A stretch of 64,000 nucleotides of DNA from Cyanidioschyzon merolae (lineage: Eukaryota). A program made the translations under genes and the position numbers. The DNA lies in assembly GCA_000091205.1 (NCBI GenBank), contig AP006502.2; one strand, 5' to 3'. Every line of letters starts with the position of its first letter. Positions within the stretch are counted from its first letter, which is position 1. This document shows, piece after piece, positions 1 through 48,607 of the stretch. The notes under the pieces were generated by a model. That model ran no database searches. It was not told the origin of the DNA and saw only the letters and a program-made list of their open reading frames with translations.

Positions 1-1985
1 CCGGATATGAGGTCGCGAAGAGACTCGTTGTAGATCTCCAACATGCTAATTTGAATATGGCATGAAAAGGCAGCACTTCGCTCTTCACAAAGCCGGAAAA
101 GCTCCGCCAACGCCCGATAATTGACACCCCGTGACTCTGGAGAACCGGACATCGTGTACGTCTTTCCGCTGCCTGTTTGCCCGTAAGCAAAAATGCAAAC
201 GTTGAAGCCATCTAAGGCGCAGGTGACGAGCGGCGACGTGTCTTCGTAGATCTGCTCCTGAGAGTGCTCTGGACCGAATACGCGATCAAAATCGAAAATC
301 TTCTGCCGTACAGCGATTTTGTCGTTATCCAGCACGTTGCACACAGTGTGGTCGTTTTCCGTAGGGAGCACGGGACGAACGCGGCAGAAAACTCGAATGT
401 TGCCGGTAATCTCCTGGACCTGGTTGAAGAGCTTGCGACGCCAGTGGAACTCTTTCCGCCACATGGCCATGCTGTGGTCACGGAGCCGCTGGCACCGCTC
501 GATTGCTTGAGAGAGCGTCGCGCTCTGGGTGTGAATCATAGACGCAGTCGCGTCGAGAGAGGCGCGAGCTTCCGCTCGTAGCTGCTCCAAAATGGCCTGA
601 AGCAGCTGCGTTTGCTCCCGGGCATGTCGCAGGCGATGTGCTAAACCTGCGCGATTCAAATCGTGAGCGGGATCCGGTTGCGTGCCTTGGAATGACAGCT
701 GCGACAGGTTCATCTTTTGCACAGCCAGCGCCGAAACGTTCGCATTCTGGGAGCCTTTGCATTCGGTGTCCAACGATGCTTCCTCGGAAAGCGCCCCAGA
801 AGGTCTGACGTCAGACCGTGCCTGCAACATACTACGCAGTGTGCTGTTTTCGCGACGCATCTCCTCGAGCTCGTTCCGGATGCGTCGCACTGCAGCCATC
901 ACACCGTCCTCGGAAGAGCCTAGGATCTTGCTCAAGGGGCTCATGATTCCATTCATGAGATACGAATTCAATACCTTGCGACAGAGCGTTGGAGTATTCC
1001 ACTGGTCGTTCAGACGCACCGTTACATTTGCGTCGCTCTGGTTTTCTGCGATGCGTTCGATGAGCATTTTGCGATTCGGTCCATGCTCCCATATCATGGC
1101 GTTCGTCCGCTGGTTCCGAATAAAGTACTTGTAATCAAAATCACTTGCGGCATCGGGATCTAAGGTGAAACAGTACTCCCAATCACCGTGCCATGAATTC
1201 CGATTGACGCTGCGTCGGCCGGATTCTTTCTGAGCGAGTGCCACGGGCAACACTTTTTCCATGCGTACGGCACGCTCCACGTTCCAGCAACCGAGTTCCG
1301 GGATCGAACCCGAGACATAGATTTCTTCGTGAGCCGGTTCGCTAGGTAGGTGGTGCATGGCGAGTCGAACTTTCACTACTTTGGCGCCACGGTCGTCCAG
1401 TAAAACCTCCGTCGCCATCGCTCGCTGCAATTCGATGAGGTGCTCTGTGTCACGGTTGACCCAGCGATTGACAGAGAACGCCCACTCGGTGCACGCTTCC
1501 CCTGGACTGCTGCAGATGCTCTCGACGGAAACCCGTTCCAAGAACCAGCCAAGTGCGTCAAGTGCGTCGGTGTCACCGGCTTCGTCCTCCAAACGCAGTA
1601 TTACCTTGTCCAGAGAGCCGATATCTTCTGCGGCAGGCACCGTGAATGACTCAGAACTCGATCTCAGGAGCGGCACGAGTTCGGGCGCCTCGGCGATGGA
1701 GGAGCTCGAGCTTTGTTCGAAACCACCACGAACCAGATGAGCAGACGTGTTCAGTGCAACCTCGGGTAAAGCGTTCAACGAACCAACTAGAGTAATATAC
1801 ACGAAGAAGCGAGCGCCATCTGGAGTTATATCACCGGAGGTCAAGGTTATACGGTACTGCATTTTCGGAAGGGCGCTCGCGTTCACCTGCGAACTACGAG
1901 CACCCTGCGACGCGTCGCTTCCACCGGCCTTGCGACTACGCTTACCCTGCGGTTTCCGTGGCGAACTCGTCTGGTTTTTGGTCAT
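1..1985 (-). CDS. Kinesin-14 (C-terminal motor kinesin) with N-terminal PLAT/LH2-like and CBM20 starch-binding-like domains; motor C-terminus runs off the window start (partial)
   Basis: Manual minus-strand translation of the frame with codons at plus positions 3k..3k+2: no stop from 2012 down to position 1; first ATG at 1985 (stop TGA at 2015-2013). Motor motifs read directly: LFNQVQEITGNIRVFCRVRP (neck, ~470-400) and FDFDRVFGPEHSQEQIYEDTSPLVTCALDGFNVCIFAYGQTGSGKTYTM (P-loop, ~300-170). Upstream is a coiled-coil stalk (~1000-480). CBM20-like block HEEIYVSGSIPELGCWNVERAVRM...WEYCFTLDPD...DYKYFIRNQRTNAMIWEHGPNRKML...LNDQW (~1400-1010). PLAT-like block QYRITLTSGDITPDGARFFVYITLVG...DKVILRLEDEAGD...LGWFLERVSV (~1860-1440). 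Missing from the supplied ORF track because the ORF is open at the window edge. Confidence 0.85.
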   Translation of the reverse strand, partial: MTKNQTSSPRKPQGKRSRKAGGSDASQGARSSQVNASALPKMQYRITLTSGDITPDGARFFVYITLVGSLNALPEVALNTSAHLVRGGFEQSSSSSIAEAPELVPLLRSSSESFTVPAAEDIGSLDKVILRLEDEAGDTDALDALGWFLERVSVESICSSPGEACTEWAFSVNRWVNRDTEHLIELQRAMATEVLLDDRGAKVVKVRLAMHHLPSEPAHEEIYVSGSIPELGCWNVERAVRMEKVLPVALAQKESGRRSVNRNSWHGDWEYCFTLDPDAASDFDYKYFIRNQRTNAMIWEHGPNRKMLIERIAENQSDANVTVRLNDQWNTPTLCRKVLNSYLMNGIMSPLSKILGSSEDGVMAAVRRIRNELEEMRRENSTLRSMLQARSDVRPSGALSEEASLDTECKGSQNANVSALAVQKMNLSQLSFQGTQPDPAHDLNRAGLAHRLRHAREQTQLLQAILEQLRAEARASLDATASMIHTQSATLSQAIERCQRLRDHSMAMWRKEFHWRRKLFNQVQEITGNIRVFCRVRPVLPTENDHTVCNVLDNDKIAVRQKIFDFDRVFGPEHSQEQIYEDTSPLVTCALDGFNVCIFAYGQTGSGKTYTMSGSPESRGVNYRALAELFRLCEERSAAFSCHIQISMLEIYNESLRDLIS

Positions 1986-2290: not shown

Positions 2291-2519
2291 CAGATCTCGG
2301 GGCAAGCGCGGCTGCGCTGCACTGCGTGTCTGCGCCGCGTAACGCCTTCGCGATCATCGGCAAACGTCCTTGTAGCGCGCATCCGGATTCCGCTCTGGTG
2401 TACGTCGATGCGCTTTCAACAATCGCTGCCGGCATCCAGTTCACCGGTGAGCCAGACGCGAGAAACGTGGGAGAGGGTTTTGTCGTGTAGTCGTCTTCGG
2501 GCGCAATATTGGTTTTCCT

Positions 2520-3101
2520 GCGAGGCGGTGCATAGCGGGCGCTCGAACACACGATGCCATGTACTGTATGGATCGCAGACGAATTGCCTTGGAGATATAC
2601 ATGCTTTACTGAACAGTCCAAGGAGGACTGCATTCATTCTTCGATTCAGTCATATCTCAGTAGTCAGATGGTTGAGGAGCGTTCAAGGAAATAAGTGGAT
2701 GTGCGGCGAGCCAATAACCGATATTCTGAAGCGTGCTTGTGGTTCATGGCAGAGAACGACCCGTTGATCATTGTCGGGAAAGCAACAGCGATGATCGCGG
2801 CCGCCACGGGCGTCTCTGTTTCTCAACGGCTTGTTTGTTTGGTCCTGAAAACATCGGGATACTGTCCAAGAAAGATTCCTAGTTCTTTGACGGCCATCTT
2901 CCACCTAAATCGCAACTATAGTGTTCCTGGAACGTCGCGACCGGTATGAAGCACAGGGACGACGGTTTGTTTTCTCAGTCGACGATCGTTCCATCGGATG
3001 ATACGGCCGGAGCCTATATGGGTATTCGTGGGGAAGGAGCCTGTTTTATGTGCGATCGAGCTCGAGGAAAGCGACGACATCAGCATCTGTTCCAGCTGCA
3101 A
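2520..3101 (-). repeat. Repeat family 2, copy 1 (~0.6 kb, unclassified), inverted relative to copy 2 at 15085..15654
   Basis: DNA and translated-frame similarity to 15085..15654. The minus-strand stretch revcomp(2941-3030) = ccacgaatacccatataggctccggccgtatcatccgatgg...cgactgagaaaacaaaccgtcgtccctgtgcttcat matches 15130-15230 at ~85% identity. ORF fragments NTHIGSG...RLRKQ..VPVLH, FPDNDQRVV and GNSSAIHTVHGIV have matching counterparts in the 15085 ORF. Confidence 0.8.
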
Positions 3102-4796
3102 TGGATTCCTTTGGCGGCCTCAGTTTCGCAAGTAGAGAAGGCTCGTACAACAGCATCCTTTTTGTCGAATCATTGAAGACTTTTCCCGGATGTCTCGCAA
3201 CGCTCCTCTAATGAACAACGTGTCATTTCACCAGTCCCATTGCGTTCGAGCTCTTGCCGATTGTTTTCAGGGGCATAGCTCCTTTTCGTTCGTCCGTGGT
3301 CTACTTGCTTCGACGTCATCGAGGGAGTGTTTCCTATCGTAAAACGAAGTGATCGTTCAACTGGACGAATTGCGAAAGCTTTCGGCCCGCTCAGAGCGGT
3401 GCATATTTCGTATTTCTTCCGCGAGGCCTTCTCCATCCGGGGAGTTCCCGTATCGAAGAGCTTCAACAAGTGGGTTCGTTTGAAGAAATAAAAAGCTCAA
3501 AGGTTGAGCTAGGCTGTACACTTCTGAGGGTCGAGATGGAGAAAAGCCAGCGAAGCGGTTCTGCGACAGAATTATATGCATAGCTGACATAGCAGCAGAT
3601 GGGACAGAGTGCACGAGTCGTAGCAATCCTTGTAGTGATGAGTTCAAGCAGAGGCAGGAAACGCACAGGGTTCCTCAAACGAGACATGTCAACGCCACCA
3701 TTTGTATCAGACGATGTGCGGCGCTGAAGAAGAGAGCCGGTGCACTGACGCCATCCAACTTTTTGGGGCAGCTTCTGAGGCTCGAAATCTACAAGGAGAA
3801 GCTGAAGCCGTTAGCAGCGTGTCGGTTGAGAAATGCTGGGAAACGCGTATGAGTGGATACATATGTATCATCGATGGTCGAGAGTCATTTCTTGTTCCAC
3901 TGATCATGTATATGCCCGTAGAGACGCAACTTGGGAGCTCAGAGCTGTTCGCCCTGTCCACCCGTATCCCTCTATCGCCGTTCGTATGAACAGGTAAGGA
4001 AACATCACTTTTTGTGGCTTCTTCCGTTGTATTTCATCGAGAATTTTTCAAGTGGAATGGATCGTAAAATACACATTCTTGTACGTAGCGTTTTACAGGT
4101 TCTGTTCTGGGTGCACCACGTTCAGAACAACGACTGAACGAAGGGTGCTTCAGCCACCTGCTAACCATTGCGTAACGAACTTGTAGAAGTAAGGCTCTTT
4201 TTCGCAAGCTACGAGCGACAGCATCAGCGCATGCCGCGCCATGTCTCCAACATACAGGAGCCATTCTCTTCGTCGTATTCCTGGGAGAATATCAAACATG
4301 GACGATCAAGTTGTGGTAGTACAGGCTTTCCGGAATTCACTGCTCAGCGTCCAACGATGCGGATGTTCCGATCTTTGCAGAGCATCAGAGAAACAACACA
4401 GCAGCAGCAGAAGCAGCAGAAGCAGAAGCTGCTGCCTGTGGAATTTCTTGGCCACCTTGCCACCGTCTGCTCCCGGGAGCGCAAGCCGCAACACGGCCTG
4501 CCCAGAGAAGCATCCCGTCCCGTGCAGCGCTGAAGCGTCCGCATAAGCTCTGCGCGTTTCTTGTGTATGGTGATCGACGCCTACCTGGCATCGCGTGCCG
4601 TTCATTCGGAACTCGTGTTTGATCTGGGGAAACAACCGCACGGTAAATGCCTCGTGACGGCGTCACTGGCATCATCATGCGCAAGTTGATTGTCATGGTA
4701 CCCGCATGAGTGGCGTTCCACTCGATAACTACGACAACAACAACGCCACCGTGCCTGTATCCGTCACCGGCACTCCGCGGACACGCCGCTCATCGT

Positions 4797-7700
4797 TTAG
4801 GCGCTTAGCAACATGTTGAGCGCCTGCTCAACGTCGCCACGCGAGGCCTCAAGTGCCTGTCGGCTGGCGTCTGCACTAAAGCCCATGCTCATTAGCTGGT
4901 CCAGCTGGTCCGCAAAGGAAAACGTTGGCGCCGCGGCGGCCTCGTTCGCAGAAGCTCCGCGAGTCGTGTTCCAATTCAGGACAGTTCCATCGAAGCGCAG
5001 GGGCTGGTCCATGGACGTTGCAACAGGGTGCAGCGGCTGGACCCGACTCACTGCAGTATCCGATTCGAGACGCAGTCTATCGGATGTCATCCAGTCCACG
5101 CAGGTGGCATCGAAGGCTTCATCGTCGCGACGCCATATGAGCACGAAAGCTTGCTCCAGAGCACTGGGATTTTGTCCAGCATCGAAAACTTTTTCATCGT
5201 TGTAGAGAAGCCAGCGCTTGTTCCGATAGACGTAGGCCACATAATGTCCCGTCTGGAGTGAAGCGCCCAGGTGAACCATAGCCGCCGCCAGCGCATACCG
5301 TGTACGGGAACTGGATGCCAGCGCAGCGGATGTCTCGGCTTCGGTATTTGCTGTCGGTTCTTCCTCGGGTGTCGATGCGCCGTTCGCCGCAGCCGAATTG
5401 GCGCTATCGAGTAGCCATTCGATAGCACGCTCGCCATCATGGTTACTGGCCTGAAGCGCTACTCGTGCCTGCTGCAAGGTGAAACCCATATCCATGAGGA
5501 GCCGTTCAGACGGGTCTATCCGAGTCAAGGCGCGCCCACTCGGTGTGCCCGACGCTGGCGCTTCTGCCGCTTCCATCCGACGCTCCGGAGGCAGACGATC
5601 CCATTCGGATTCGTCGACAACGAGCCAGGGTTTCATATCGAGAACGATGGTACCGTCGGCTCGCTGTTCGAGACCACGCTGCGGGTCTGAGAAGGTCACC
5701 GCGGTGGACACCTTGCGAGGCACCCAGTCCTCACCGGCCTCGAAGCGTCGCAGATGCATAATAAGAAAAGGTGGACACCGACTGGGGCTCTCTCTCCTTT
5801 CAGCCTGATTCGGATCGGCGACTCCGATCGATGCTCGACACGACGGGCACTGGAACGAGAGCAGCTCACTGGCAACGCTGAGGTCGAGGCATGCTGCCAG
5901 GGAGACACGCGCAGAGGATTCCTGGTCCTGCTCCGCGGAGATCGCCTTGCTCCTCGTTGAGTATTCAGCACCTCGGACCGACGACGCAATAGGCACGTAT
6001 AAGGAAGTTGCTTCCGTGGAGTTCATGCCAATGCGATGGCAACGCAAACATTCCGTTCGTTGAACCAGTGGAAAGATGAAGAAGCGGGCTGGGTCTCGAG
6101 TTCCTTGCCGCCGAGCCTCCGCCGTGCATCGACTAAGAAAATACTCGAGAAACTCGTGAGCGTCCTGCTGCCTTTTCGTCGCAAATTCCGGATGACCTTG
6201 CCCGATTAGGTTCTGAAACATTCGCGGTGCAATGCCCTGGGGCGGCTGGTACCGGCGCAACAGCCCTGCGCCCTCTGCTGGCGTCTGAACGTCACTTGTG
6301 GCGGGTGCAGGTTCCGGTTCGGGCGCTTCGGCCATTCTCGAAGGCGCCTCGTGATCCGGAGCTCCAGTTTTCACCGGTTTTGGCATCGTCGCGTGCTCGT
6401 GCTCATGGATTTTGGCTGCAGAGGCGCGCCCCAACTCATCGATGCGTTGTGGAGTGTGTTCACGCTTCCAGTACCGCTGGCTTAGCAAGCCATCCGCTAG
6501 CTTACGCATTTGACATTCAAAGCACTGCAGTGCACTGCCCGCCTCGCACCTCGTGTAATGGCGGTCCAAGGATTTGTTCTTGAATGGGAAGGAAAGCGCA
6601 CGAGGCTCTTGATACCAGCGATAGGGCGCAAATACCAGCGCGTAGATGCACTGGAGCACACTCGAGATATAGCACGTATTCCCCATATTCCGCATTCCAG
6701 TTGCGACGACATCAGGCGCATAGAGACTGGGATCCGTAATCCTGCGCAGACTCGGATTATGGTCCGAGAAATTGGATCCCAGCTCCTTCAAGTTAAGCTG
6801 GACATTCTGCTCTATCTCTAGTTCAATCAGGCTTTTCTCGGTCTTCTCCTCACGACGAATATCAATACCGAACTCGCTCAGATGCCGTTCAAGCTCTGGG
6901 TCTACACGGAGCTCGTCACAGACGTAGCAGTGTACGTCCGCTGTGCCGTCGGCGGTAATGGTACCGAGCTTCACCGCGACAGCATGATCCGCGTTCATCC
7001 CGCCATAGGCTTGAAAATGCTCCCATGCGTGATTCTTTCCACCGGTGCCATCAAAGTTCGTTCGCCCGCACCCAAGGTGCCCACACGAGAGACAGAGCCA
7101 AAGATTTTCGCGCAAATCGCAGGAGGAGCATTTTGCCGTGGAACGACTGAGCGATGTATCCACGTCGATTCCCTCCAAACGACAAACCGTGAGCGTGTGT
7201 TCGCACGGCTGCAACTGCAGCTCCCATGCCTGCACCTGCTCCTTGCGTGACATGGCCGCCGCTTCGTGCACGCTCTCTGCCAGCGTTATCCACGCTTCCA
7301 GCTGTGAGGCCGGGTAGGCCCCAGAGCGGAGATCCGAGCTCCAGTTCCGAGCCGACCCTGCCTCGGGCTCTCGAAGACAAGCTACCCAACACTTTGCAGC
7401 CACGTCGTAGATACCTTCCAAGCGCACTGGAGGAACTGGTGCTTCCAGGGACTCTGCACCCTGTATGGTGTAACCTTCGCTCGTTCGCAGAACTTGAGGC
7501 GCTAACGTGGCTGTTGTGCCTCGCTCGGCCTCTGCTGCATCCTTCTGAGCCTGCACCAGGGTGCTCTGCTCGAGACGATCAGCCTCCGCCAGCGGTGCTC
7601 TTCGCAAGTTCGCAAAAACTTGATGTTTCGTCTTTCGGGTGTGAAGCTCCGCGTGTCTTCGGTATGCACAAAAACACTGCAAACAAGTCAAACAAACACA

Positions 7701-7802
7701 AACACCACCAGGAGAGTCAACGTCTTCAAAACAAAGCGAACACTCCTCTTTTTCAACGCAGTCGATCGACGGCACACCTGATCTATTCATTGTTTGATTC
7801 AC
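4797..7802 (-). CDS. Ubiquitin carboxyl-terminal hydrolase 5 / isopeptidase T (USP5/UBP14-like): ZnF-UBP, USP catalytic domain, two UBA domains
   Basis: 1001-aa ORF. Cys-box GMRNMGNTCYISSVLQCI; ZnF-UBP CLSCGHLGCGR...WEHF; two UBA-like segments LLMDMGFTLQQARVALQASNHDGERAIEWLL and LMSMGFSADASRQALEASRGDVEQALNMLL; His-box HYVAYVY. Confidence 0.9.
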   Translation of the reverse strand: MNQTMNRSGVPSIDCVEKEECSLCFEDVDSPGGVCVCLTCLQCFCAYRRHAELHTRKTKHQVFANLRRAPLAEADRLEQSTLVQAQKDAAEAERGTTATLAPQVLRTSEGYTIQGAESLEAPVPPVRLEGIYDVAAKCWVACLREPEAGSARNWSSDLRSGAYPASQLEAWITLAESVHEAAAMSRKEQVQAWELQLQPCEHTLTVCRLEGIDVDTSLSRSTAKCSSCDLRENLWLCLSCGHLGCGRTNFDGTGGKNHAWEHFQAYGGMNADHAVAVKLGTITADGTADVHCYVCDELRVDPELERHLSEFGIDIRREEKTEKSLIELEIEQNVQLNLKELGSNFSDHNPSLRRITDPSLYAPDVVATGMRNMGNTCYISSVLQCIYALVFAPYRWYQEPRALSFPFKNKSLDRHYTRCEAGSALQCFECQMRKLADGLLSQRYWKREHTPQRIDELGRASAAKIHEHEHATMPKPVKTGAPDHEAPSRMAEAPEPEPAPATSDVQTPAEGAGLLRRYQPPQGIAPRMFQNLIGQGHPEFATKRQQDAHEFLEYFLSRCTAEARRQGTRDPARFFIFPLVQRTECLRCHRIGMNSTEATSLYVPIASSVRGAEYSTRSKAISAEQDQESSARVSLAACLDLSVASELLSFQCPSCRASIGVADPNQAERRESPSRCPPFLIMHLRRFEAGEDWVPRKVSTAVTFSDPQRGLEQRADGTIVLDMKPWLVVDESEWDRLPPERRMEAAEAPASGTPSGRALTRIDPSERLLMDMGFTLQQARVALQASNHDGERAIEWLLDSANSAAANGASTPEEEPTANTEAETSAALASSSRTRYALAAAMVHLGASLQTGHYVAYVYRNKRWLLYNDEKVFDAGQNPSALEQAFVLIWRRDDEAFDATCVDWMTSDRLRLESDTAVSRVQPLHPVATSMDQPLRFDGTVLNWNTTRGASANEAAAAPTFSFADQLDQLMSMGFSADASRQALEASRGDVEQALNMLLSA

Positions 7803-7995
7803 CCTAGTCTGCGAGTTCGTATACGCAGCACGTCAGCGCAGAGCTCGTCGCTTGTTCAGAAGCGCGTACGCTCGGATCGACCATGGGAATGGCGGCAGTG
7901 CCGCGTGCAGCGCTGCAGGGCAACGATCGCCAAGCGTCGGCTGCTGCAGCTCCGAGCGATGCGAGGCTCCGACCGGCCCAGTGGACTGGTGATGG

Positions 7996-8222
7996 TGATC
8001 CATGGTCAAGAGTGTGGAGGATATGGAGGCACGTACCTGATCCATGGTCAAGAGTGTGGAGGATATGGAGGCACGTACCTGATCCATGGTCAAGACTGTG
8101 GAGGATATGGAGGCACGTACCTGATCCATGGTCAAGACTGTGGAGGATATGGAGGCACGTACCTGATCCATGGTCAAGACTGTGGAGGATATGGAGGCAC
8201 GTACCTGATCCATGGTCATGCT
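7996..8222. repeat. 42-bp minisatellite, ~5.3 tandem copies (unit gatccatggtcaagaStgtggaggatatggaggcacgtacct)
   Basis: Direct reading: near-perfect 42-bp tandem copies with one g/c variant (gag/gac). Because the period is a multiple of 3 it leaves all four overlapping ORFs (7794..8303, 7804..8319, 7833..8219, 7883..8296) open. It lies in the divergent intergenic region between USP5 (start 7802, minus) and ORF 8767 (plus). Confidence 0.95.
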
Positions 8223-8766
8223 GGTGCGCCCGAGGAAACTCGTCCAGACTCACTGATTTCGTGTCGGAGACGAAACTACGACATCCGTACGGGTAACGTA
8301 TAGGCGCGTGTTGCACCAACGCGATGCAGCTCGAAGCTCGCTGCGCGGAGGCTGTCTCTTTTTTGTGGCTCTATCTCGAGGGAGAACTCATTCGGATTAG
8401 AGTAGTCTGGGCTTTACTGGACGCGATTGTGGCACAGGAGGAACTGAGGTCTCTGGTCTGCTTACTGGCAGCGTTTGCGCTGTCGAAGATGTCCAGTTCA
8501 GCGCGTTGGCCCCGGAACGGTCGTACGCCGGAATTGAGCGGCGGTGCCGTTGGCGGCTCGCATTGCTCCCGCGAAGCGCCTCTCTGGACGAAAAAACTGT
8601 GAGGGATTCCTGGAAGAGTCGGCGTCCGATGGATCTGCATGTGTTCCTTCTATTCCTAAAAGATACTTACGACCTGAACTTGAGATATGCAAGAACGTGT
8701 TCAGATGCTCGATGATCTCTTCCCTGGCGTTCGAGCAGCATAAGCAGCGCGCTCAAGAGTACAAGA

Positions 8767-9729
8767 TTGACGCACCTGCTGCACGGCATCATGGAATCAC
8801 GTGCCTGCGTTTGCGGCACACGCGAGATCGCCCGCCGCACGCTGCGCCGCTGCAGGCGAAGCGCGCGCGCTGGAGTGCCGACGGGTGCCCCAGCCAGCGG
8901 CAAGCGGGTGATAACACCAGCGACATGTTCGGGCACAGGCTCGTGTGCACTTTCGATGTTCGCGTTTCTACCAGTAGCAAAGGCGGTTTTCCCGATCTTT
9001 TGTCGAAGTTTTCCATCACACGCTAGGTTTAACGAAGCACTGGGTCAGCGTAGGCACGCTTGCGGGTTCGTTCGTATTACGAGGCCGCGCTACGTGGCGC
9101 TTCGCGTTCGACGCCGGCACACCGTGCGTGGCGTTGCGAGAAGCCTCGTGGCGGTCGTGCGGCCCGGAGATGTTGCTCTAGTTCCATCACCGTATCCAGG
9201 CTCGGAGGACGCTGTTGTTTTGGTCGTTGGTCTCGACACAACTGGTCGAACGGCGGACGTCGTAACGTTGCACGCTGTTGGGCGCTCGGAAGACTCGGCG
9301 GTTTTGTACGAGCGCGAGGCAGGCGCTGCAACGCGCTTCGAGCGTGTCGATAAGCTGGCGCCCTTGAAGCGTGTTCAGCGGGATGAAACGAAGGATGTGT
9401 GGAAGGTGACCACAGCGGAACTTGAATCAGTGAAGGCTGCGTTCTTGTCACCCGCGGGACAAGCTGCCGTACAAGCCGAGATGGAACAGATCGAATCTAG
9501 CATTGATCGGCGCATATTTGAGCGTAGCCCGTCACCAGCACCGACGCGGACGCAGCTTCTGACTGGTTCGGGAATATGTGCCGGGGCCTCTGTGGCTTGC
9601 GTGGTAGCACTGTCTCAACACGGCAGTGATGGCCTAGCGTCAGCGTCTGGCGTACTTACGGCTGCCGCTTTCATTCTTTCCATTGTATCTGGAGGACTTG
9701 CTCTCGCTGCTTTGCGCCAACAACAATAG
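8767..9729 (+). CDS. Hypothetical protein with C-terminal hydrophobic (tail-anchor-like) segments
   Basis: 320-aa ORF. The C-terminus GICAGASVACVVALSQ...VLTAAAFILSIVSGGLALAAL looks like 1-2 transmembrane helices. No recognisable family. The N-terminal third is Arg/Cys-rich and may be non-coding. Confidence 0.35.
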   Translation: MTHLLHGIMESRACVCGTREIARRTLRRCRRSARAGVPTGAPASGKRVITPATCSGTGSCALSMFAFLPVAKAVFPIFCRSFPSHARFNEALGQRRHACGFVRITRPRYVALRVRRRHTVRGVARSLVAVVRPGDVALVPSPYPGSEDAVVLVVGLDTTGRTADVVTLHAVGRSEDSAVLYEREAGAATRFERVDKLAPLKRVQRDETKDVWKVTTAELESVKAAFLSPAGQAAVQAEMEQIESSIDRRIFERSPSPAPTRTQLLTGSGICAGASVACVVALSQHGSDGLASASGVLTAAAFILSIVSGGLALAALRQQQ

Positions 9730-10369
9730 ATGAAGTGATGATGGAATACCATCAGCGCGGCTGACGCGTTATGAAACTGTACAACTCGGAGCGAGTCGTT
9801 ACCAGTTGTTCGCCTTTCAGACAAGAGTTTGTTGGGCGCCTCAGAAAACTAGATAGGTATGCACTGGACGGCAGCGAAGGGCGTTGGATTAGAATCCGGA
9901 ATGCAGCAGCGAAGCGCTCTTGGATTATGACGGAACGCTGTATCTCGAAGCAGACTGTCATAGGAACCCGCATCTGCAGACAGTTTGGTTGGAAACGCTC
10001 TATGGATCCGAGCTCTCCGTGGATGGCAAATGGAGCGCTGCACGGCATGTTTCCGCGTACGATACGCTTTCGCTAGGGCGCAGTGCATTGTTTCGGGCTC
10101 AGGACGAGGTCGTGGTGCTTGCGCGACCTCCCAGGACCCGACCTGTACGCATTTGGGCATGGGTCCAGTTCCGGATGCTACCATGCACCGGTTTCAAGTA
10201 AAAATGGGAAACTGAACTGCTCGCTCTGTTTCTGCCTAGCGATATCCCGCCGTAGATTAACGATTTACTGGCTCGATTTTGAGAAAGCAGCAGTACGGGC
10301 TCACGGATGCAAACATAGTTTTAGGATTCATGGTCGTCTTCGCGGAGTGGCTCCTTCCAAGCTTTGGCG

Positions 10370-10980
10370 TTGGAATTCCTTACGATACTGGAGTCACGAC
10401 TCCAGATGCCCTCGAACAAGCGTTCGTAAACTAATCGACATCATAATCCAGTGTATACGTACAGGCATCCAATCTTCCCATTTCGTTATATGGAGCATGC
10501 TCGGATCACACTTCGTACAAGTTTTCGATCATTCTAATTCATTGCAACTCGTCGAAATAGCAATACGAGGGAAAAAGCTCGACCTTGCCCCTTGACGACT
10601 TGTTCAGAAGCTCTCACCGGAACCTCACTAAACTGCTCACTGCAAATAACCGATTCTCCTCGAAGGGTATATGCTCATCATTTCTAGGCCATCGACGAAG
10701 TGGCGCTTGGTGGCCTCATGATACCTTTCGCATGATACGCTGCCTGGGGTTCCCGTCTCTTCGATTTGGGAGGGAAAGAGTGTTGCATTCGGACTCGGGA
10801 GATCACAGCGATCGCTTCTAGTGGAGTGCGCGCCACCGTTTTCCACGGCTGGGGCGTAGACCTATCGAAATTTCCTGGGTTGTCATCCTGCCTGAATTTT
10901 TCCTGCGTTGCTTGGTTCATCAAGGACACGATCGCATTCCACAAATCCTCTAAAGAAATGGAACAGCATGCGCTTCCAGG
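10370..10980 (+). repeat. Composite interspersed repeat, copy A (part-1 forward + part-3 reversed)
   Basis: Part-1 (10374-10600; ggaattccttacg...atcataatccag...catgctcggatcaca) matches 20597-20950, 25750-25920 and, in reverse, 31100-31300, 47100-47350, 58600-58990 and 35900-36190. Part-3 (10680-10975) is the reverse complement of 46729-47000, 30672-30930 and 58358-58600. ORFs on both strands (10083.., 10684.., 10766..) reflect DNA-level similarity, not genes. Confidence 0.8.
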
Positions 10981-13166
10981 TGCATCGAAAAGCGTCCTCG
11001 CAGCCGGCGATCGCCAAGACCAAACAGCGATCGTCGGGTACGGCACCGTGGAGTGCAGAAACGGAGTTCTGCATCAAGATGGACCTTTTCAACGCCTGTC
11101 AAGCGGCATGGATCGACCGATGAAGCAAGTGTCCTCGAAGCACAAGGTGACGCGCTTTGAGAGATGTTCGGTGGACGCATGTGAACCCCTGGCCACTCGG
11201 AAGTGTTGCCGCTGCGGGGACGCACCGATGCTGTACACAACGACGACGAATCCGGTAAGCGAAGCATGGATCGAAACATCCACATCTGCATGAGATTCAT
11301 CCATAACACCCGAGAAGGGAGAAACAGAGACTTGAATGCGGGTATCAACATTCTTGGATCGCTGGCAACCGAGCTCGACGGCCAGATACGGTCGGCGGAT
11401 GTACAGTTGGATATCAGAGAGTGGAAAAGAAGCAGTCAGACCAAAAACCCGCAATGACTAGCGCTGACGATCGTCGAAAGAGCCCAAACGGTTGTGTGTA
11501 CACCCGATTTGGAGTACCTGTCCATTGTATTCTTGACATGGGTATCAATATGATGAACGTCGATCGCGAATCAGGTATGTGGATGCCAAGGGCGCATGCG
11601 CAGACGCGCTCCGATAGGTTGCAAGCGACTTGATCTCTTCAAGGCGCAGCACGAACAACAGACGCATGATCCTTCAAACTGGCTTTGCATCTCGGAATGA
11701 GAAACTTATGGGAGCTGCTATGCGAGAGTTTGCAAGCTCGACTGTTCAAAGCCTGACCAAAGCGAATTTCGGTCTCTGGGTTTCACAGATACGACCGGTA
11801 ACTGCCAAAGACGTCGAGGCGAAAGTTTGCTTGTTTTTCGAAACGCGTTTGGCGCAACGAAAAGTATTGTGGCGCGTGACCAGCAACGGCAAGCAATTCC
11901 AGCAAAACGATGACAACCCACATGCGCGAGTGCTGACCACGCGGCTCAGTTGCGGACTAGAAACGCCTTCTTGAAACAACGTGGTTTGATCCCGCTCGTT
12001 CCTGCCTGGTGGAGAATTCCGATCCAGCAACCGAGCGCGTGCAGTGGGCACACCGAAGGACGTCGCCGACCTGGCGCCAGCATCGACTCGACGTGTCCAG
12101 TTGTCGCTAAACAGGATCATTTAGCTGGGGGCGCCTACGCACCAGTCACTGTGATGCGACCAAGACACAGCGATTGGAATACTTGGCTGTTTCTGAATTT
12201 GCGTAGAGCGTGACTTTCAAAGGGGCTGAGAAATGCAGCTGCGGACAGCACCCTGAGATCCTAAACAAGGCGCTTCCCAGAGATCTCTCAGCGCGCAGCG
12301 AACAACACGAATCTGCCAGTCGAAGCGAGAAGCGCGGATGCCGTCTGTACCTGCGCGTTGCCACAAGCCACGAGACTTTTTTGCAAGCTTCACTTGCCAC
12401 TTTCGGAGCGCATGGTGTTGGTGAGCGGTATTGTTGCAGTTTTCCGAGCGAACGGCACGTCGCCACTGTCTGCATCGCTGCAGGTTCGAAGCAATCTGGT
12501 GGATACTCGTGAGCTGCCGAAAGGTACAACCTTCCTGCATGAGTGCTCGTCAGCGTTGTTTTTTATCTTCGTTGCAATTCAATGGCATCGACGCGCGCTG
12601 TTTCCGATATATTTAATGGTAACGGCTCCGGGACGCACGTTTAACAAGTACACCAGTTCGGAGCCGCGTCTTAATCGAGAAACGCGGGTCGTTGCAAATT
12701 CCTTGCAGAGCCAGAACGACACGCAGGATGTCGCGAAGCCGTCTACGCAATTCTACCGACTCCTTGACAAGTCCAACTTCATATGGAACACGAGCACGTC
12801 AATGAGAGCGTCCATAGTCTGTCTGGTTGCCAGAGAGGTGGCCCCTGAAAGCCGGCCTTTGCCGTCTCCTGAATCAGGGACGACGCAAACAATTGCACAC
12901 CGGAAACGAAACACGCTATTCGGAAACGTGGGTTCACCACGGCAAAGCCGCGTTCAGCGTGATACGCTCGCGTGTGGTTCACCGAAAAACGCGAGGCATA
13001 CCCTCGGCGGAACAAACCGCAGGGACCCCTGCCTGCATCGTCGCGGAATTTCAAACGCTTCCGAGCATGCTGGTCTCCGACTGCTTCCTCGGGCGTTCAG
13101 CGCTGCCGATGACGACCATCATAACCAGGGTTCACGACTTGGGGCGCCAAACGGATGTGGGGATTC

Positions 13167-13727
13167 TCACGATGGTGCGGGAAATCTGTCCGAGGACTCA
13201 TCCGCGGACAGGTGCTGCTCTAAGAGCGGCAGACGTTCGTGGAGAACCATTGCAAGATCTGTATTTTCCAGGACTCGCTCTCGTGCTGCTGTCTCAAGGT
13301 GTTGCAGCACTCGTTCAAGGTCCTCAACGAGCGATTCCGTGCTTTCGAGTTCTTTCCATTCGCGCTCACTGAGCGCGCCACTTGTATGCAAATCTGCAAT
13401 GGCTTGTCTTATAGAGTCAGACGAGGGTTTCGAGGCGCGCTTTCGCCAAACTGTTTCGGACGCCTCCAGTTTCCGTTGGACCGGTGTCGCAAGTTGTTGC
13501 TCGTCGTCCGACGCTCTAGTCCTCGGTCTGCGACCTGTACTCAGCCGCTGTGCAGATACAGGTTTGGGCGGCTGCAACGCGTCACCTGGTGCTACCTGTG
13601 AATCCGTTTCTGCGATTGAGACTAGACTGGTAATCCGGGGAGTTTCTGGCGGACTTTGATTCAACTGCGGGTTCTTCGGAGAACTATTCACTAGTGAAGA
13701 GCATGAACCCACGACATGGTGGTTCAT
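13167..13727 (-). CDS. Hypothetical charged/coiled-coil-like protein (weak)
   Basis: 186-aa ORF with a protein-like charged C-terminal half (REWKELESTESLVEDLERVLQHLETAARERVLEN). It overlaps a 433-aa low-complexity ORF on the opposite strand. No homology recognised. Confidence 0.2.
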   Translation of the reverse strand: MNHHVVGSCSSLVNSSPKNPQLNQSPPETPRITSLVSIAETDSQVAPGDALQPPKPVSAQRLSTGRRPRTRASDDEQQLATPVQRKLEASETVWRKRASKPSSDSIRQAIADLHTSGALSEREWKELESTESLVEDLERVLQHLETAARERVLENTDLAMVLHERLPLLEQHLSADESSDRFPAPS

Positions 13728-15084
13728 GGCAGATCACTCTGCCAAAGAATCACTCCGAGTCCCGGCAGTTCTACAACGCCTGCTTCGAGTCCCTCTGCGT
13801 CAGCCAAGCTGACGAACGGAACCGAGCCCAGCCTGACCGAGCCGGACTCCGAAGTTGACCTCCACTCTATCGGACACACAGACTAACGTAGTTTCCTTCT
13901 CGGAGAGGCGTCTCCTGGTATATCTATTGCTGCGTTTCCAAGGTGTGCCTCGTGGGTCCGCCGCCAACCGCATCCGCCACCTGGTGCGCCGTACGAACAA
14001 GCGATCCACCGGTTCACGCACCGACGCCGACTTTAAAGCTCCGAATGAAATGTACTTCAGATTTTCCGCGAAAATCTTTGCTCTCTTGCCAGTTTTCAAC
14101 TGGAATGCGCATAATATGCGCGACCCGAACGTTGCAAACAACAGCGCTTCGACACGTGGCTAGGGCAAACGCTGCCATCGACGGTGGACGGTTGTGGCGC
14201 GCCGCCCGCCCTCGAGAGTGCGTCTACAGACGCCGACGCGCAGACGCCTCCCAGACTTGTGTCGATCGGCTGCCTGCTCTCGATTTCAGCTGCTCCTTGT
14301 ATATCTCGAGCATGAGAGGCTGATCCACAAAAAGTCGGCTTGCGACAGCTTTCCGGGCCTCGTCTTCAGGACTACACAGAATCTGGTGTTGATGACGGCA
14401 TTCAAGTCCCGGTTCGCGAACGCCATGTATTTATAGGCGCTGATGGAACTCATACAAGCAAGGAGTCCTCAAACTCGTGCCCTCTGTGTCGCTACAGTCT
14501 CGCCATTGTCGCGTCGGGCAAACTGCTTTTGTCGCATATCTCCCCTGTTCTTCTTCGTCGCTTGCTCGTCTCCGTTCGACGTTCGACGAGAAGAGGATTC
14601 TTTTTCGTTTTTTCTGGCATCTGGCGACGACGGCGCTCCAGGATCTTCGACTTTTATGTCCATACCTTTTCCTTGGAATTTGTATTTCTGTTAATGGAGA
14701 CACTGGTAGATGCCCTTTCGTGAGGATCCCCTTGGAGGGCAAGGGATTTGCGGAAGGGAAACGACATGCGCCCCAGCGGTATCGTGCTTCATGCTTCAGC
14801 GATTTTCCTAGTGGAGCGATCATCACGTTGTACGATAGAAAACACTCCTTCGATGGGTTTGAGCCACGGATCCTCTAGAGGTTTGAAAAGAAGCTCTACC
14901 CCGATATAATCTCAAAAACCGCGAACGCAAGGGGAATGCTGGAATGCCGCGTTATCCAATAGAAGAACGTCGCGAGATGTCAGGGAAAACTTCTTCAATG
15001 ATTCGATGAAGTCTCTGGTTTACTGTGATCCTTGTCTGGGAGCGATACTGAGGCCGCCAAACGAATCCACTACAGCTAGAACAT

Positions 15085-15654
15085 ATGATGATGTCGTCGC
15101 TCTCTTCGGGCTCGGTCGTACGTACAACAGTTCGCTGCTCCGCGAATACCCATATAGGCTCCGGCGGTTCCGTCCGAAGCAAGTCCTATCGACTGAGAAA
15201 ACAAGCCGGTGTCCCTGTGCTTCACATCGATTGCAATGTTCAACGAATTCTATCGTTGCGATTTCGGTGGAAGGTGGCGCTCAATGAACTAGGAATTTCA
15301 AGGGACTGTATCTCAGAAATTTCAGGACCAAACGAAAAACTGCTGAGTACCAGACACACGCGTGGCAGCTTCCATCATCGCCCTTACTTTCCCTCGATTG
15401 ATCAACGGGTCGTTTTTCTACCAGTGACCGCAAGCAGTCCAAAAAATATGGCTCTCTGGCACTGTGCGCATATACTTGATTCGAGGATTGTTCCTGAGTT
15501 ATCTGAGTACTGCGTTTTGACCGACATGAAGGAAAAATACAGTCCTCCTTGCACTGTTCAGAAAAGAAAATATACTAAAGGCAATTCATCTATGATCCAT
15601 ACGGTACATTGCATCGTGATGTCAATCTCCTGCTATAGACCCCAACGGAGATGA
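15085..15654 (+). repeat. Repeat family 2, copy 2 (forward)
   Basis: See the 2520..3101 entry. MMMSSLSSGSVVRTTVRCSANTHIGSGGSVRSKSYRLRKQAGVPVLH matches the minus-strand MLMSSLSSSSIAHKTGSFPTNTHIGSGRIIRWNDRRLRKQTVVPVLH; also shared are FPSIDQRVVF/FPDNDQRVVL and KGNSSMIHTVHCIVMS/QGNSSAIHTVHGIVCS. Confidence 0.8.
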
Positions 15655-17226
15655 AGCAAAACTGAGCTCAAAGCCTCTAAGCCGGACGGTGTCGACAGAT
15701 GCGCTTCGATTCATGGGCGTGCCTGCGACGGACACGGTGACGATGAGGTACTCTGGGAATAGTCGATCCATGCAACTCCATAGAGAAGGCGAGTTTCGAT
15801 CTCACTGTTCACATAGTGTGTCTGAGTCGCAAGGAACAAACCGCTATGAAATATGGTAAACACATGCTTGCAACGAGTCCAAATCAAGGAGCAGGCGAAA
15901 AAGGAGCTAGTCTCTGCATGCAAGTATGAAACATGCGAGCCAAAGCCTAAAGAGCGTTGGCGGAGCTCGTTCCAGGTTTGTAGGTTATGAAGCAAACATT
16001 GAAACAAGTCTACAAGGACGATAGGGACCGACGGAACACCAATCTGTGCGCATATTCGTAAACCTCGGCCAGCGCCGAGCACCGACACGCATGTTCAACT
16101 GTGCCAGGTGGATGACGAGAAAGACTTTATGGTGGGTGCGGATCCCTGCTTTGAGGACGTTATGGTCGTCGCCGTACCTCTACATCAAGAGAATGGAGCC
16201 AAAGTCTTGAGCGCAATGCAAATGTACCTGCTCAGATTCTACAGGGATAGGTATCAATGGGAGGCGGGCATCATGGACGCCAGGAGGCATACCGACAAGT
16301 GCAATGACAACGTCGGAATCCATGACGGCGATCTGCGCACCGTATCGAGCAGAAGTGGATATTTTCTGTACGCTTCACTCAGAACGCGTACCTGGGCGTC
16401 GAAATGGCACAGGCACACGATCTATGGCAGGGGCACGTGAGACGGCGCTGGGGTCGCCAACGATGTCTATTGCGCAGAGGCAAGCAGCGTGCATTTACCA
16501 ACCTATCTCATGCGTTCGCAAAAGAAACCGGGGATACATTGCGTCGCGTGGCGGTAGTCTACGGTGTCGGACGTGTCGTATCCCGCAAAGCATGCACGCG
16601 TATTCCGTCGCGGGCCTGCAACGCGTGCTGGAATCGATTCTGTACGATTCGCGTTAAAGTCTCGAGAACAACACGCTCGCATCACGAGCACGGAAACACG
16701 CGGAAACGGTAAGTGATTTGAAAATTAAAACAGAGTCCGGTACAGGAGGTGGTGTACTGTAAGGAGACCAAACTCCAGATGGCGCGGCAAACAAGGGTAA
16801 GAGGCTTGCTATGGTATGATTCCACCATCAACAATGCGAAGAATCACTTTTTGCGACCAGAATTGAACGCCTTGATTAGCATACGAAAGGATGCCGCACT
16901 TGCGGAACGTCCACCGGCTTTGTTTCGAGCGAACGTTCGATGTCGTCCTTCAGCAGTCAGCGTGGGCATTATGCTGCAACGCTGCAGACTTTCGATGCAC
17001 GGAACCAGCGGCGAGGATATAGAAATTGGAACTCTCACCGCAAACAACGCTCTGGTGTCGAACAGCACAGCAACAACGTTTGTGCTTCGTGTACGCATAC
17101 GCACTGGAAACGATACTCCAAGGCAATCAGAGCACGATAATGACGCCCCAAGATTCGATATCAAAGAGTATCGCTTGCGCACAGCTCAGCGTCACGACAT
17201 CCAATCGTGAACATATCTGCAGAAGC

Positions 17227-18570
17227 TTATAAACCTCGTCGATTCGACTCCCGAGCGAGCGGAATCGAGGGCAGTTTCGCATCGACTTGATCAGCAGCAC
17301 GCCTCAGCTTCGTCATTTCATCCAAGTCAAGGCGCCAGCCCAACGCCTGTGCATTTTGTTGAGCTTGCCAGGCGTTTTTCGCTCCCGGAATAGGTATGGC
17401 TATCGTCGGTTTCTCCCCAGCGGCACGCATCTCGCCTGCAGTGATGACATAGTTCAAAGCGACTGCCGCAAGCGAGACCTGGCGCTTCGCAGCGATCCGC
17501 TCCATCTCGCTGAGCAGAACATCCACGCGTTCCACAAGGGACGCAGCGAGTCGTTTTCTCACGCCAGATGGCAGACGTCCTTTCCGATATCGACCGGTGA
17601 GCAGGCCCTGAGCCAGCGGCGAATATGCTAGAATCTGAATGCCGCGATCTGCGCAGATTTCGCAGAGCGTTCGATCGTCGGTGGCACCCAGGCACCGCAC
17701 CGTCTCCGGGTCTCGGTGCAGGAGACTCCACTGCACCTGATTTGAGGCCAAGGGCACCTCGTGGACTTGGCGGAGATACGTATCGCATTTCAGAAGGCGA
17801 CTGGGGCTGAAGTTACTCACACCCACGCATCGGATGAGGCCTTCGTGGTAGGCCTCGGCGAGGGCGTCCCAGATGGGTTCGTCGTTTTCGCCGACAAACG
17901 CAGGCCAGTGCTGCTGGTACAGGTCGATGTTTTCAAGACCGAGACGGCGCATGGAAGCTCGCAGTGCTCCCAGCACAGATCGACGCACCGTTTCCCGGCG
18001 CTGCGGTCGACTGAGCCATCCCAGCAGGTTCAGCGATAAGCCGGCAGTTCGCCAAGGAAAGGGAGCGTACTTGGTGGCAACATTTATTTCGGGGAGCGGC
18101 GAGTCAGGACCGGCATTTGCGAGAACCTCTTCCGTCACTTGGCGACCGATGCGTCCCACAAGTTGCTCGGAGCGCCCCGGAGGTGTACCGTACACCTCCG
18201 CGGTATCGATGAGCGTGACCCCGTTTCGCAAGCTTTCCCGCACCGCATCCGTATTGTCTTCCTCGGAAGAGCTGCCCCAGTAAAACCGATCACCGAAAGA
18301 CCAAGCACCCAGGCCAAGTGGTACTCGCAGTTGCACGCCACCGTTGCGGCCAGCGAGCAGCACAGGCTTCTCCGCGGCATACGCCACGTCTCCTGATCGA
18401 GTGGTCAAACAGAGACCGAGCGACCGTGCCGAACGCGGTGCGCCCGCAAGCGACGACCCAGGTAACACTGGAAGCTTCACAAGGAAAGCAAGCTTGGAAT
18501 CCATAATCGTTGTACCTTTTCGTCGGTACAAGCGACACTCACTTGTTCGAGGTGAACACGGCAAATTCAC
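17227..18570 (-). CDS. Aldo/keto reductase of the plant/algal plastid type (At1g06690-like) with N-terminal extension
   Basis: 447-aa ORF. LGLGAWSFGD...TLIDTAEVYG, INVATKYAPFPWR, IDLYQQHWP, IRCVGVSNFS, PLASNQVQWSLL, ILAYSPLAQGLLTGRY and IPIPGAKNAWQAQQNAQALGWRL are collinear with the AKR fold and closest to the plastid AKR family. The ~70-aa N-terminal extension may be a transit peptide. Confidence 0.85.
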   Translation of the reverse strand: MNLPCSPRTSECRLYRRKGTTIMDSKLAFLVKLPVLPGSSLAGAPRSARSLGLCLTTRSGDVAYAAEKPVLLAGRNGGVQLRVPLGLGAWSFGDRFYWGSSSEEDNTDAVRESLRNGVTLIDTAEVYGTPPGRSEQLVGRIGRQVTEEVLANAGPDSPLPEINVATKYAPFPWRTAGLSLNLLGWLSRPQRRETVRRSVLGALRASMRRLGLENIDLYQQHWPAFVGENDEPIWDALAEAYHEGLIRCVGVSNFSPSRLLKCDTYLRQVHEVPLASNQVQWSLLHRDPETVRCLGATDDRTLCEICADRGIQILAYSPLAQGLLTGRYRKGRLPSGVRKRLAASLVERVDVLLSEMERIAAKRQVSLAAVALNYVITAGEMRAAGEKPTIAIPIPGAKNAWQAQQNAQALGWRLDLDEMTKLRRAADQVDAKLPSIPLARESNRRGL

Positions 18571-20596: not shown

Positions 20597-21150
20597 TTAC
20601 GAATTCATACGCTTGTTCGGGGTTTTCAGTCCTCGTTTTGGTAGCGGGTCCTTCGATACTTTGCTGCTCGATTTCATGAGGTCAATGGAATCAAGATGTT
20701 TCACGACGTATTTGGACATGGGTTTGTGAAACAATCGATATCATGATCCAGCTCATACGAAAAAGGCTGTAATCTTCTCGTTTCCTTTCACGAAGCATGC
20801 TCATATCATGGTTCTTCAATTTTTCAAGCCTTCCGTTCCAAAACATCTCGTGGACCAAGCAAATAGCGCTTCTAGATTGATGAGCAAAGAATTCGACGTG
20901 GTTCCATAAAGCCATCCTCACGAGCTCATACCAAAAAATGACTGAACGCGTCAGATCGAATCATCGTTTCTGTTCGAAATACAAATGCTTCTTCCTTGTT
21001 GCTATCGAGAAATCAGAAATCGACTGCAACGCGATACATCTCTTGGGAGATACAATGACAGGCTCCTGTTTCTCCTTTTTGCATACATGATAGTCTTGGG
21101 CTCGGACTTGAGCCATCGCTGCGATCGCCTCCGGTGATGCGAGCGTCACC
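20597..21150 (+). repeat. Composite interspersed repeat, copy B (forward; part-3 possibly extends to ~21300)
   Basis: 20690-20930 aligns with 10440-10590 (atcatgatccagctcatacg...catgctcatatcatgg vs atcataatccagtgtatacg...catgctcggatcacac). Minus-strand ORF 20961..21149 (SPEAIAAMAQVRAQDYHVCKKEKQ) matches the part-3 end seen at 46900-46960 (APLEAIVAMARVRAQHPILCKRKRR). Confidence 0.75.
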
Positions 21151-47350: not shown

Positions 47351-48607
47351 GCACACCATCGCGAGTCTCCGGGTACGTAACGAACGCCAGCGGCACAGCG
47401 TCAACGGGGGCACTTCGAAAAAGCAACCGGGCATCCTATCACGTACTATACATGCTTGGCCGTTTATTCCGGCAATCTGATTGTCGAGGCTGTACATCGA
47501 ATGCATCTAGGAAAAATTCGCAAGACAGACGCTGAGCGAGCAATACAATATCCGATTTTAAGCTGATACAGGTGTTTTCTCTGAACGCCCCACACGTTGC
47601 GGCCGGCGACAGTCTCGCGCTTGTCGCTCTGAGGACTCGCGATGCACGAGCTCGCAGGAACGTGCACCAGTGAGGTTAGTGAGCAAGAAACAACCTCCTG
47701 TGATCCTTTCATAAGAGGACAAATGCAGACCTTGACAGGGCGGCCCAGATACATTCGGGACTCTTCAGATCATGGACGTGGCCTTTGTGCCAATGACGCG
47801 CCCGACGGCCGCTCCAGTTCATGCAGAATCGAGGAAGGTGGACCCCCACAGAGATGCCATCAGTGACACACAAAAGTTATCCCACGAACATGGAGAGTAA
47901 ACACGTAGTCTCACTCACAGACCTCTCCCAGCATTTTTTGACAGGCCGTCTGCTATCGGCTGTAGCTTCTCTTTGTACACTTCGAGGCTGAGAGGCTACT
48001 TCACAAAGGTGGTTCGCGTCAGCACCACGTATCGTATGGAATTGATGGCGGCTACGAAGTCTCGGTTCACGAACTTCTTGTATTTATTGTATCTGCTTGA
48101 ACTCACCAATGCAAGGATTGCTAGAACACGTGCCCTCCGTACCACACCAGTCTCGTCATCATCCCGTGGGGCAAACACCTCTTCCCGCCTATCCCGCCTC
48201 TTCTTCTTCTTCCTCCTCGCTCTATCAAAGACCAGAAGAGGATTTTGCTCTTTCGTTTCTCTCCGGCACCCGATGACACCGGGAACTCCAGGATTCCCAA
48301 GTTACATCTCCATAACTTTCTCTTAGATTATGTATTTCTTCAAACGGACGCATTTCGAAAGCATCTTCCATACACCGCGAAATCGCATGATGAGACACGC
48401 ACCTGGTGATGGAACACCATTGGGATGAAATACTACAATCAGACTAATATGGACAATTTATGAAAGCATTTTGCCGCAGTCGCCGCCGGCACGTCCCACG
48501 CGAATCCCCGGGTTGACCTCGGGGGTCCATGGCAACAGCCTCCAAACGACAGCGAGCTTGCATGTCTCTTTTTCCGTAAGTTTCACACCAACCGCAGGCC
48601 GCTGATC

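Follow-up and report, generated by a model that had tools for sequence, protein, structure and literature searches.

Inversions lying between paired transposons are known for Ty elements in yeast and for IS elements in bacteria. Among elements of the Tc1 kind, the transposase of Tc1 or of Sleeping Beauty is about 340–360 aa long. In Drosophila buzzatii, inversions have arisen through ectopic recombination between inverted copies of Galileo, for which the proof lies in target-site duplications exchanged between the copies (PMC2775673). Inversions produced by alternative transposition have been documented for Ac/Ds in maize (PMC8225341), and a staggered-break model has been put forward for the Drosophila melanogaster group (PMC1885836).

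The locus described here lies in a stretch of 64,000 nucleotides (the whole of the DNA that was analysed, hereafter the window), which is eukaryotic, intron-poor and about 55% GC. Its genes encode a USP5-type ubiquitin hydrolase, pescadillo, an exosome RNase PH subunit, Trp dioxygenase (TDO), GST and an aldo-keto reductase, together with a kinesin carrying PLAT and CBM20 domains and importin-alpha. Two copies of a repeat, A and B, stand in inverted orientation at the two ends of a ~10.3-kb segment of this DNA.

The inverted repeat pair and its decayed transposase

A sequence-only reading had picked out two inverted copies of ~0.6 kb, at 15085–15654 and 2520–3101. The pair is real and far beyond chance: blastn aligns 14810–15636 with 3362–2532 at 72.5% identity over 836 bp (E 1e-124), MAFFT global alignments of A and B agree with this pairing, and a repeat search of the window returns the inverted arms 2875–3187 and 14984–15296. 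When A was aligned with the reverse complement of B, the collinearity previously put at ~580 bp was borne out as homology but proved too short an estimate, because the copies are homologous over ~1.45 kb (14172–15690 against 3907–2480), with 67% identity in ungapped columns. Identity had been overestimated: in place of ~85% over at least 100 bp, the best 100-bp window (15030–15129) reaches 81% and the best 50 bp 88%, while 15085–15654 as a whole stands at 72.3%. The alignment is patchy, with runs of 20–25 identical bases, and 1–2-bp indels separate the two copies.

The element consists of an ~80-bp leader, a ~0.9-kb transposase gene (~300 aa) and a ~0.5-kb non-coding tail. Copy A occupies 14172..15690 and lies on the minus strand in transposase sense; its ends, accurate to about ±20 bp, are the points at which homology with B and with the further copies D, E and F stops in nhmmer and MAFFT alignments. 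By tblastn, its transposase pseudogene runs along the minus strand from aa 1 at 15609 to aa 298 at 14723 (14723..15609). This pseudogene is broken into two frames with at least three in-frame stops and keeps the DD34E residues (in SVDRT, LLLDNA and KPIEG). The non-coding 3' tail of A (‘part 1’, 14172..14722, minus strand) is common to B, C, D and E, and no Pfam domain was found in it. Copy B is inverted relative to A and lies at 2480..3907, on the plus strand in transposase sense, with a deletion of ~150 bp in its tail. Its pseudogene, placed at 2559..3452 (plus strand) by tblastn and profile-HMM mapping, spreads across three frames and has N in place of the second catalytic D (LMNNVSFH). The tails of A and B both point inward, toward the enclosed segment.

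The stop-masked translation of A from the strand opposite the 189-aa ORF at 15085–15654 (15193 to 14791) matches Pfam DDE_3 (PF13358) with 31.7 bits (E 1.6e-7), above the gathering score of 28.6 bits. The NCBIfam IS630 model (NF033545) matches the A fragment with E 3.5e-13 and the consensus of the copies with E 5.9e-21, both of which, being fragments, fall below its whole-protein cut-off. A word-index protein search with the stop-masked pseudo-protein gave no matches, and an exhaustive phmmer search of 1.84 billion representatives returned 307 relatives at E ≤0.001 and 68 at E ≤1e-10, the best at 4e-26. Full-length relatives are ~300 aa long and combine N-terminal HTH signals with DDE_3, and intact ones score 108–130 bits on the IS630 equivalog against its cut-off of 100. 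Aligned with intact relatives, A keeps D31, D109 and E144 (fragment numbering), the last two separated by 34 residues; the catalytic triad of the element is DD34E. The motifs SVDETSFGR, LLMDNVAFHHS and YSPWFNPIEGVFSIVKR reappear in a majority consensus of the copies, whose N-terminus, MYRMDRRRIAFRIY, resembles that of intact relatives. With a profile built from 50 full-length relatives, used alongside tblastn to map the transposase, the N-terminal 88 positions of the profile can be recognised in A (15352–15609, E 1e-4) and in B, D and E; the HTH models of Pfam match the intact relatives only, and weakly, leaving A and B unmatched. A sequence search of the PDB matched no solved structure. Domain matches, catalytic motifs and consensus together show A and B to be long-dead copies of one ~1.45-kb family of DD34E DNA transposons of IS630/Tc1-mariner type, and by its sequence the element is a new, short-transposase member of that superfamily.

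Several of the intact ~300-aa transposase relatives (L010 and L016–L021) sit on contigs of giant-virus MAGs (GVMAG, IMG/VR), and one such relative adjoins virus-type genes, those for DUF5906 and Peptidase_S74.

Further copies, ends and other remnants

A search for further copies, which the sequence-only reading had proposed, yielded a third, partial copy in the window and three loci on other metagenome contigs. Copy C (47855..48393, minus strand; nhmmer E 2.4e-56) is a fragment of the 3' tail that matches just the inner ~0.5 kb and sits ~215 bp upstream of the RNase PH gene (48608–49492). Neither a 5' part nor a MITE-like structure was found when looked for in C. The idea that C is an internally deleted, MITE-like derivative was rejected, there being no 5' part and no long inverted repeat matching the tail. 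The other three copies were located via contigs encoding the closest ORF fragments: D at 2962–4426 of L008 (the same locus as in L009), E at 2982–4367 of L014 (the same locus as in L013) and F on L012, where it is cut by the contig end. All three match the A/B profile from position 1–2 to 1449–1450, so that at unrelated loci they start and stop where A and B do. With common termini at unrelated loci in A, B, D, E and the contig-cut F, besides the fragment C, the element appears plainly as a discrete, once-mobile unit.

The known loci of the family number at least six, all of them pseudogenes, with every copy broken into two or three frames. Pairwise identities among the copies are 66–72%, and the tree is star-like with the copies about equally diverged. 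In the coding part A and B are barely closer to each other (70%) than A or B is to D (68%); in the tail A and B form the most distant pair, and A is nearer to C and D. Gene conversion as a source of extra A–B similarity was rejected, since every pair, and not A–B alone, is more alike in the catalytic core than elsewhere. That all copies are pseudogenes and about equally diverged points to an old burst of one ~1.45-kb mobile element; common ends, decay, star-like divergence and a restorable consensus are the usual signature that would be left by such a burst followed by neutral decay. Nothing suggests a present function for A or B.

No terminal inverted repeats rise above shuffled controls in A or B, and none are evident in the six-copy alignment. 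A structure with long terminal inverted repeats is excluded. An intact distant relative (L010) has just a ~21-nt imperfect terminal repeat, and repeats of that length would be erased at 30% divergence, so their absence here is expected and weakly informative. In the flanks, suggested earlier as a place to look for target-site duplications, a TA immediately follows the inferred 3' end of B and of D, and A, B and D each have one close to the 5' end; the termini are uncertain by about ±10–20 bp, and TA is a frequent dinucleotide.

Another dispersed family is present at 20872–21327 (+), 25653–26206 (+), 30714–31199 (-), 46756–46962 (-) and 58372–58900 (-), as self-blast pairs show; it is evidently the ‘7-copy composite element’ of the sequence-only reading, which had called it unrelated to the A/B repeat. 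At the DNA level this holds, for the two are not alignable, but the profile of intact-relative transposases matches the 7-copy positions weakly (E 2e-5 to 0.3), and both families are probably remnants of one transposase superfamily. The 7-copy family probably represents an older or more diverged branch of this same IS630/Tc1-type superfamily. Further decayed transposase remnants lie at 3998–4219 (-; E 5e-6), 10266–10954 (+; E 3e-5) and 42690–43264 (-; E 2e-8), none of them alignable as DNA with A or B. The first sits in the gap from copy B to the hydrolase gene, the second inside the inverted segment; a sequence resembling this second remnant, at 10.3 kb, also adjoins copy D in L008. The low-GC intergenic dips of the window are transposon graveyards. 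For annotation, recognising them avoids calling pseudogene fragments as proteins, as has happened in public calls on L004, L008 and L012–L014.

The window holds simple repeats of other kinds. CTG/CAG runs occur at 2231–2298, in the spacer that separates copy B from the kinesin start, and at 52274–52332, inside the ORF 49991–53620, while a 110-nt direct repeat (98% identical, 147 bp spacing) at 35914–36170 overlaps the ORF 35388–36128.

A three-gene block between the two copies

The gene order of the window was compared with that of a sister genome (L001, GCA_041825655.1) and of an outgroup contig (L003, ENA ERZ1300892 NODE_17, 140 kb), the latter from the Rio Tinto acid mats (PMC11052175). Three-protein identities make the window and L001 sisters and place L003 outside (e.g. 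74 / 58 / 58% for the reductase). In both relatives the reductase (+) and hydrolase (-) genes are convergent neighbours, 1.2 kb apart in L001 and 75 bp apart in L003. The order in L003 is TDO(-), GST, GST, reductase(+), hydrolase(-), 268-aa(+), 103-aa(-), 215-aa(+), PAP2(+), kinesin(+), importin(-). Read in the same direction, the window has TDO(-), GST(+), reductase(+), [A], 186-aa(+), 320-aa(-), hydrolase(+), [B], kinesin(+), importin(-), and blastn and tblastn both find the hydrolase block and the reductase–GST–TDO block in opposite relative orientation in the window.

The flipped block comprises the genes for the USP5-type ubiquitin hydrolase (4797–7790, -), a conserved protein of 257–320 aa (8767/8956–9729, +) and a conserved protein of 186 aa (13167–13727, -). 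It is internally collinear with its counterparts, and both flanks are collinear with orientation unchanged. On the left, the 5' part of the PLAT/CBM20-kinesin gene (1..1985, -) has the same orientation as in L003, and in the conspecific contig L007 importin-alpha comes after the kinesin, again as in L003. On the right, the aldo-keto reductase gene (17227..18570, -) is collinear with L001 and L003 and is followed by the genes for GST (19186–20106) and TDO (23030–25372). With L001 as sister to the window and L003 as outgroup, the reductase–hydrolase adjacency is ancestral and the state of the window derived. Synteny with L001 and L003 delimits an inverted segment of ~10.3 kb (3908..14171), and the three-gene block between B and A is shown, at the level of gene order, to be a derived inversion. 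The breakpoints are resolved to intergenic intervals only, 13727–17227 (3.5 kb, holding A) and 1985–4797 (2.8 kb, holding B), of which A fills about 40% and B about half.

At the second junction, L003 has the 215-aa gene and PAP2 between the orthologue of the 186-aa gene and the kinesin. The comparison at this junction draws on L003; contig L015 ends 480 bp after its reductase gene. The PAP2 phosphatase gene itself lies at 11708–12751 in L003 and at 31584–32765 in the window, ~14 kb beyond the reductase and past TDO and pescadillo. This displacement means that at least one further rearrangement separates the lineages.

Some features of these genes stand apart from the question of their order. 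A 433-aa ORF (12358–13659, +) overlaps the 186-aa ORF (13167–13727, -), of which the minus-strand ORF alone is conserved in L001 and L003; the 433-aa ORF (415 aa in the public gene call on L004) is probably spurious. The kinesin, seen at greater length at 15794–19273 of L007 (window 1–1985 being the 5' part), has PLAT and a CBM20 starch-binding domain ahead of its microtubule-binding and motor domains, and the kinesin of L003 also shows CBM20 and motor. L003 was deposited among ‘cyanobacteria-related contigs’ (PMC11052175) and yet carries genes for kinesin, importin-alpha and a USP5-type hydrolase; given such plainly eukaryotic genes, it appears to have been misassigned.

Four conspecific assemblies (L004, L005, L006 and L007), each from a different metagenome, are 99.3–99.5% identical to the window and collinear with it across both junctions. 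The eukaryote of the window occurs in Yellowstone hot-spring metagenomes, among them the conspecific source Ga0078972 (PMC8986864), and the only 100% match to its reductase stood on a JGI metagenome contig. Both copies and everything between them are spanned collinearly by L006 and L007 at 99.5%; L004 gives the same arrangement on the A side, and L005 takes in the hydrolase and part of B. Each of these four independent assemblies, which cover the region, has the derived order, and the alternative orientation was seen in none. A 42-bp tandem repeat of ~6 units at 7954–8260, just upstream of the hydrolase start codon, varies in copy number among the conspecific assemblies (L006 has one unit more), and contig L004 ends there.

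The age of these events can be bracketed. Four-fold degenerate sites are saturated between the window and L001 (34% identity). A profile search of the syntenic 30 kb of L001 and L003 detected no transposase remnants, and nhmmer found the repeat in the spacers of these two genomes as a non-significant match only (E 0.83, in the reductase–hydrolase spacer of L001). Saturated sites set against 67–75% identity between copies, together with the absence of remnants in L001 and L003, place both the burst and the inversion after the split from L001. Conspecific strains differ by 0.5–0.75%, so little compared with the divergence of the copies that both events would long pre-date present strain diversity.

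Origin of the inversion and comparison with known systems

The sequence-only reading had allowed the repeat pair to mean either that another element had inserted twice or that a rearranged segment had its edges there, and the evidence supports both at once. The family multiplied in intergenic regions after the split from the nearest sampled relative, and in the sequence of events that we propose A and B inserted in opposite orientation on either side of the three-gene block. Soon afterwards, ectopic (non-allelic homologous) recombination between A and B, still nearly identical, would have flipped the ~10.3 kb between them, after which the inversion would have become fixed and the two copies would have decayed neutrally to about 67–72% identity. 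The exchange must have come early, since the present identity of ~67% is far too low for homologous recombination. A dead transposon pair, with an inversion arising through early ectopic recombination between its copies, is the best explanation and one that we consider probable, the recombination step being the part that we infer. The classic proof from exchanged duplications does not apply to an element like this one, whose expected target duplication, TA, is palindromic and whose ends are decayed. Counting against the proposal, most long intergenic regions of the window contain transposase remnants, so that some co-occurrence with breakpoints is expected by chance. We also looked for an older element that had been split by insertion of this family, with its halves now beside different copies, and found only the 3998–4219 remnant, without a partner.

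This same abundance of remnants is the main attraction of supposing a coincidence, in which breakage and end-joining inverted the block and the two copies inserted independently, before or after, into spacers that act as transposon sinks. There are about ten transposase remnants in 64 kb, roughly one per long intergenic region, and the one at 3998–4219 lies in the left breakpoint interval. The window has no full-length family members besides A and B, however, and these occupy exactly the two breakpoint intervals among about 20 intergenic regions, in opposite orientation. The chance expectation for this is about 1/190 x 1/2 (a rough estimate from the ORF map), and we regard a coincidence as unlikely.

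The transposase could instead have produced the inversion directly, through alternative or hybrid-end transposition in which the termini of two copies, or of copies on sister chromatids, were paired and integrated nearby, inverting the intervening DNA. Such an event would suit an element of cut-and-paste type from a family once active in this lineage, and an inverted pair at both breakpoints fits the structure that it would leave. It would, however, have needed two copies close together beforehand, and it predicts breakpoints exactly at the termini with a target duplication at the new junction; terminal repeats are not recognisable here. We know of no documented inversion of this kind by IS630/Tc1 elements and judge it improbable.

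Under the staggered-break model, one resident copy would have lain in the spacer between reductase and hydrolase, and staggered single-strand breaks around it, once filled in, would have left a copy at both ends of the inverted segment. The orientation of the repeats fits, with B keeping the hydrolase-side and A the reductase-side neighbourhood, and terminal repeats or target duplications are indeed not visible at the repeat edges. The homology between A and B nevertheless stops at element termini shared with D and E, not at arbitrary nick sites, and A and B are not closest relatives, given the star-like tree and the proximity of A to C and D in the tail. We hold an origin by staggered breaks to be quite improbable.

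Very little can be said for the repeats as functional host sequence, be it paralogous genes (such as the 189-aa ORF), a structured RNA or a shared regulatory module. The patchy blocks of 20–25 identical bases might suggest conserved function, and a prokaryotic gene finder calls an ORF there in L004. This 189-aa ORF (15085..15654, +), for which no Pfam match was found, is open in A only and meets stops in the same frame of B. The translated fragments that had seemed to match between the copies (NTHIGSG.., RLRKQ and VPVLH) come from this frame and fail as a shared coding signal, as the frame is open in A alone. Both lie antisense to the real, decayed gene: the ORF is no gene but a frame that happens to be open opposite the transposase pseudogene, and the fragments reflect conservation of DNA. 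A and B have no open frame in common, and in every block the mismatches fall evenly on the three codon positions (e.g. 20/27/25 in 14991–15296). Paralogous protein-coding genes were rejected on these two grounds, and a structured RNA or tRNA-derived element on Rfam and tRNA scans of the entire window, which gave no matches. With the antisense strand clearly a decayed transposase, a host function is very improbable.

An assembly artefact, with the contig mis-joined at the repeats, is barely worth entertaining even though the window derives from a metagenome and L005 ends inside copy B and L004 in the 42-bp array, because two long contigs from different metagenomes (L006 and L007) are collinear through the segment at 99.5%, L004 confirms the A side, and repeats at 67–72% identity do not confuse assemblers.

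We therefore return to ectopic recombination between two dead transposons as the preferred reading, under which an anonymous repeat becomes an explained structure and one micro-inversion is polarised and tied to a specific element pair. It illustrates neatly how one burst of transposition widens intergenic spacers and reorders genes in a eukaryote whose genome is very compact and intron-poor. As to where the family came from, one could imagine that it entered the acid- and heat-adapted host from a giant virus, burst, widened spacers from <0.5 to 3–4 kb and reshuffled the gene order; such an entry is speculative and we think it doubtful. If it did occur, the A/B inversion would be one visible product of that burst. 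The inversion raises no new question.

The element resembles members of the IS630/Tc1-mariner superfamily in its DDE_3 core, in its D-D-E catalytic residues with 34-residue spacing and in the motifs DE(T/S)xF, LLDNxxxH and (Y)SPxxNPIE. Its intact relatives have an N-terminal HTH (HTH_23, HTH_Tnp_Tc3_2), and the length of about 1.3–1.5 kb is also typical of the superfamily. It differs from Tc1 and Sleeping Beauty in its short transposase of about 300 aa, and from the superfamily at large in an unusually long ~0.5-kb non-coding 3' tail, with just ~80 bp before the start codon, and in terminal inverted repeats that are not recognisable in the decayed copies. The curated model nearest to it is the bacterial IS630 equivalog and not a eukaryotic Tc1 model.

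The rearrangement likewise has close parallels. As in the Galileo inversions, copies of one family lie in opposite orientation at both breakpoints and the inversion is derived relative to outgroups. Unlike them, the present case involves a palindromic TA and decayed ends, and an old, fixed inversion of very small size (three genes, 10 kb) in a compact protist or algal genome. With the staggered-break duplications of the melanogaster group (PMC1885836) it shares inverted copies at both ends of an inverted segment, but the unit here is a discrete mobile element with copies elsewhere, and A and B are not exclusive sisters. The A/B structure is thus a standard transposon-flanked inversion, ordinary in kind.
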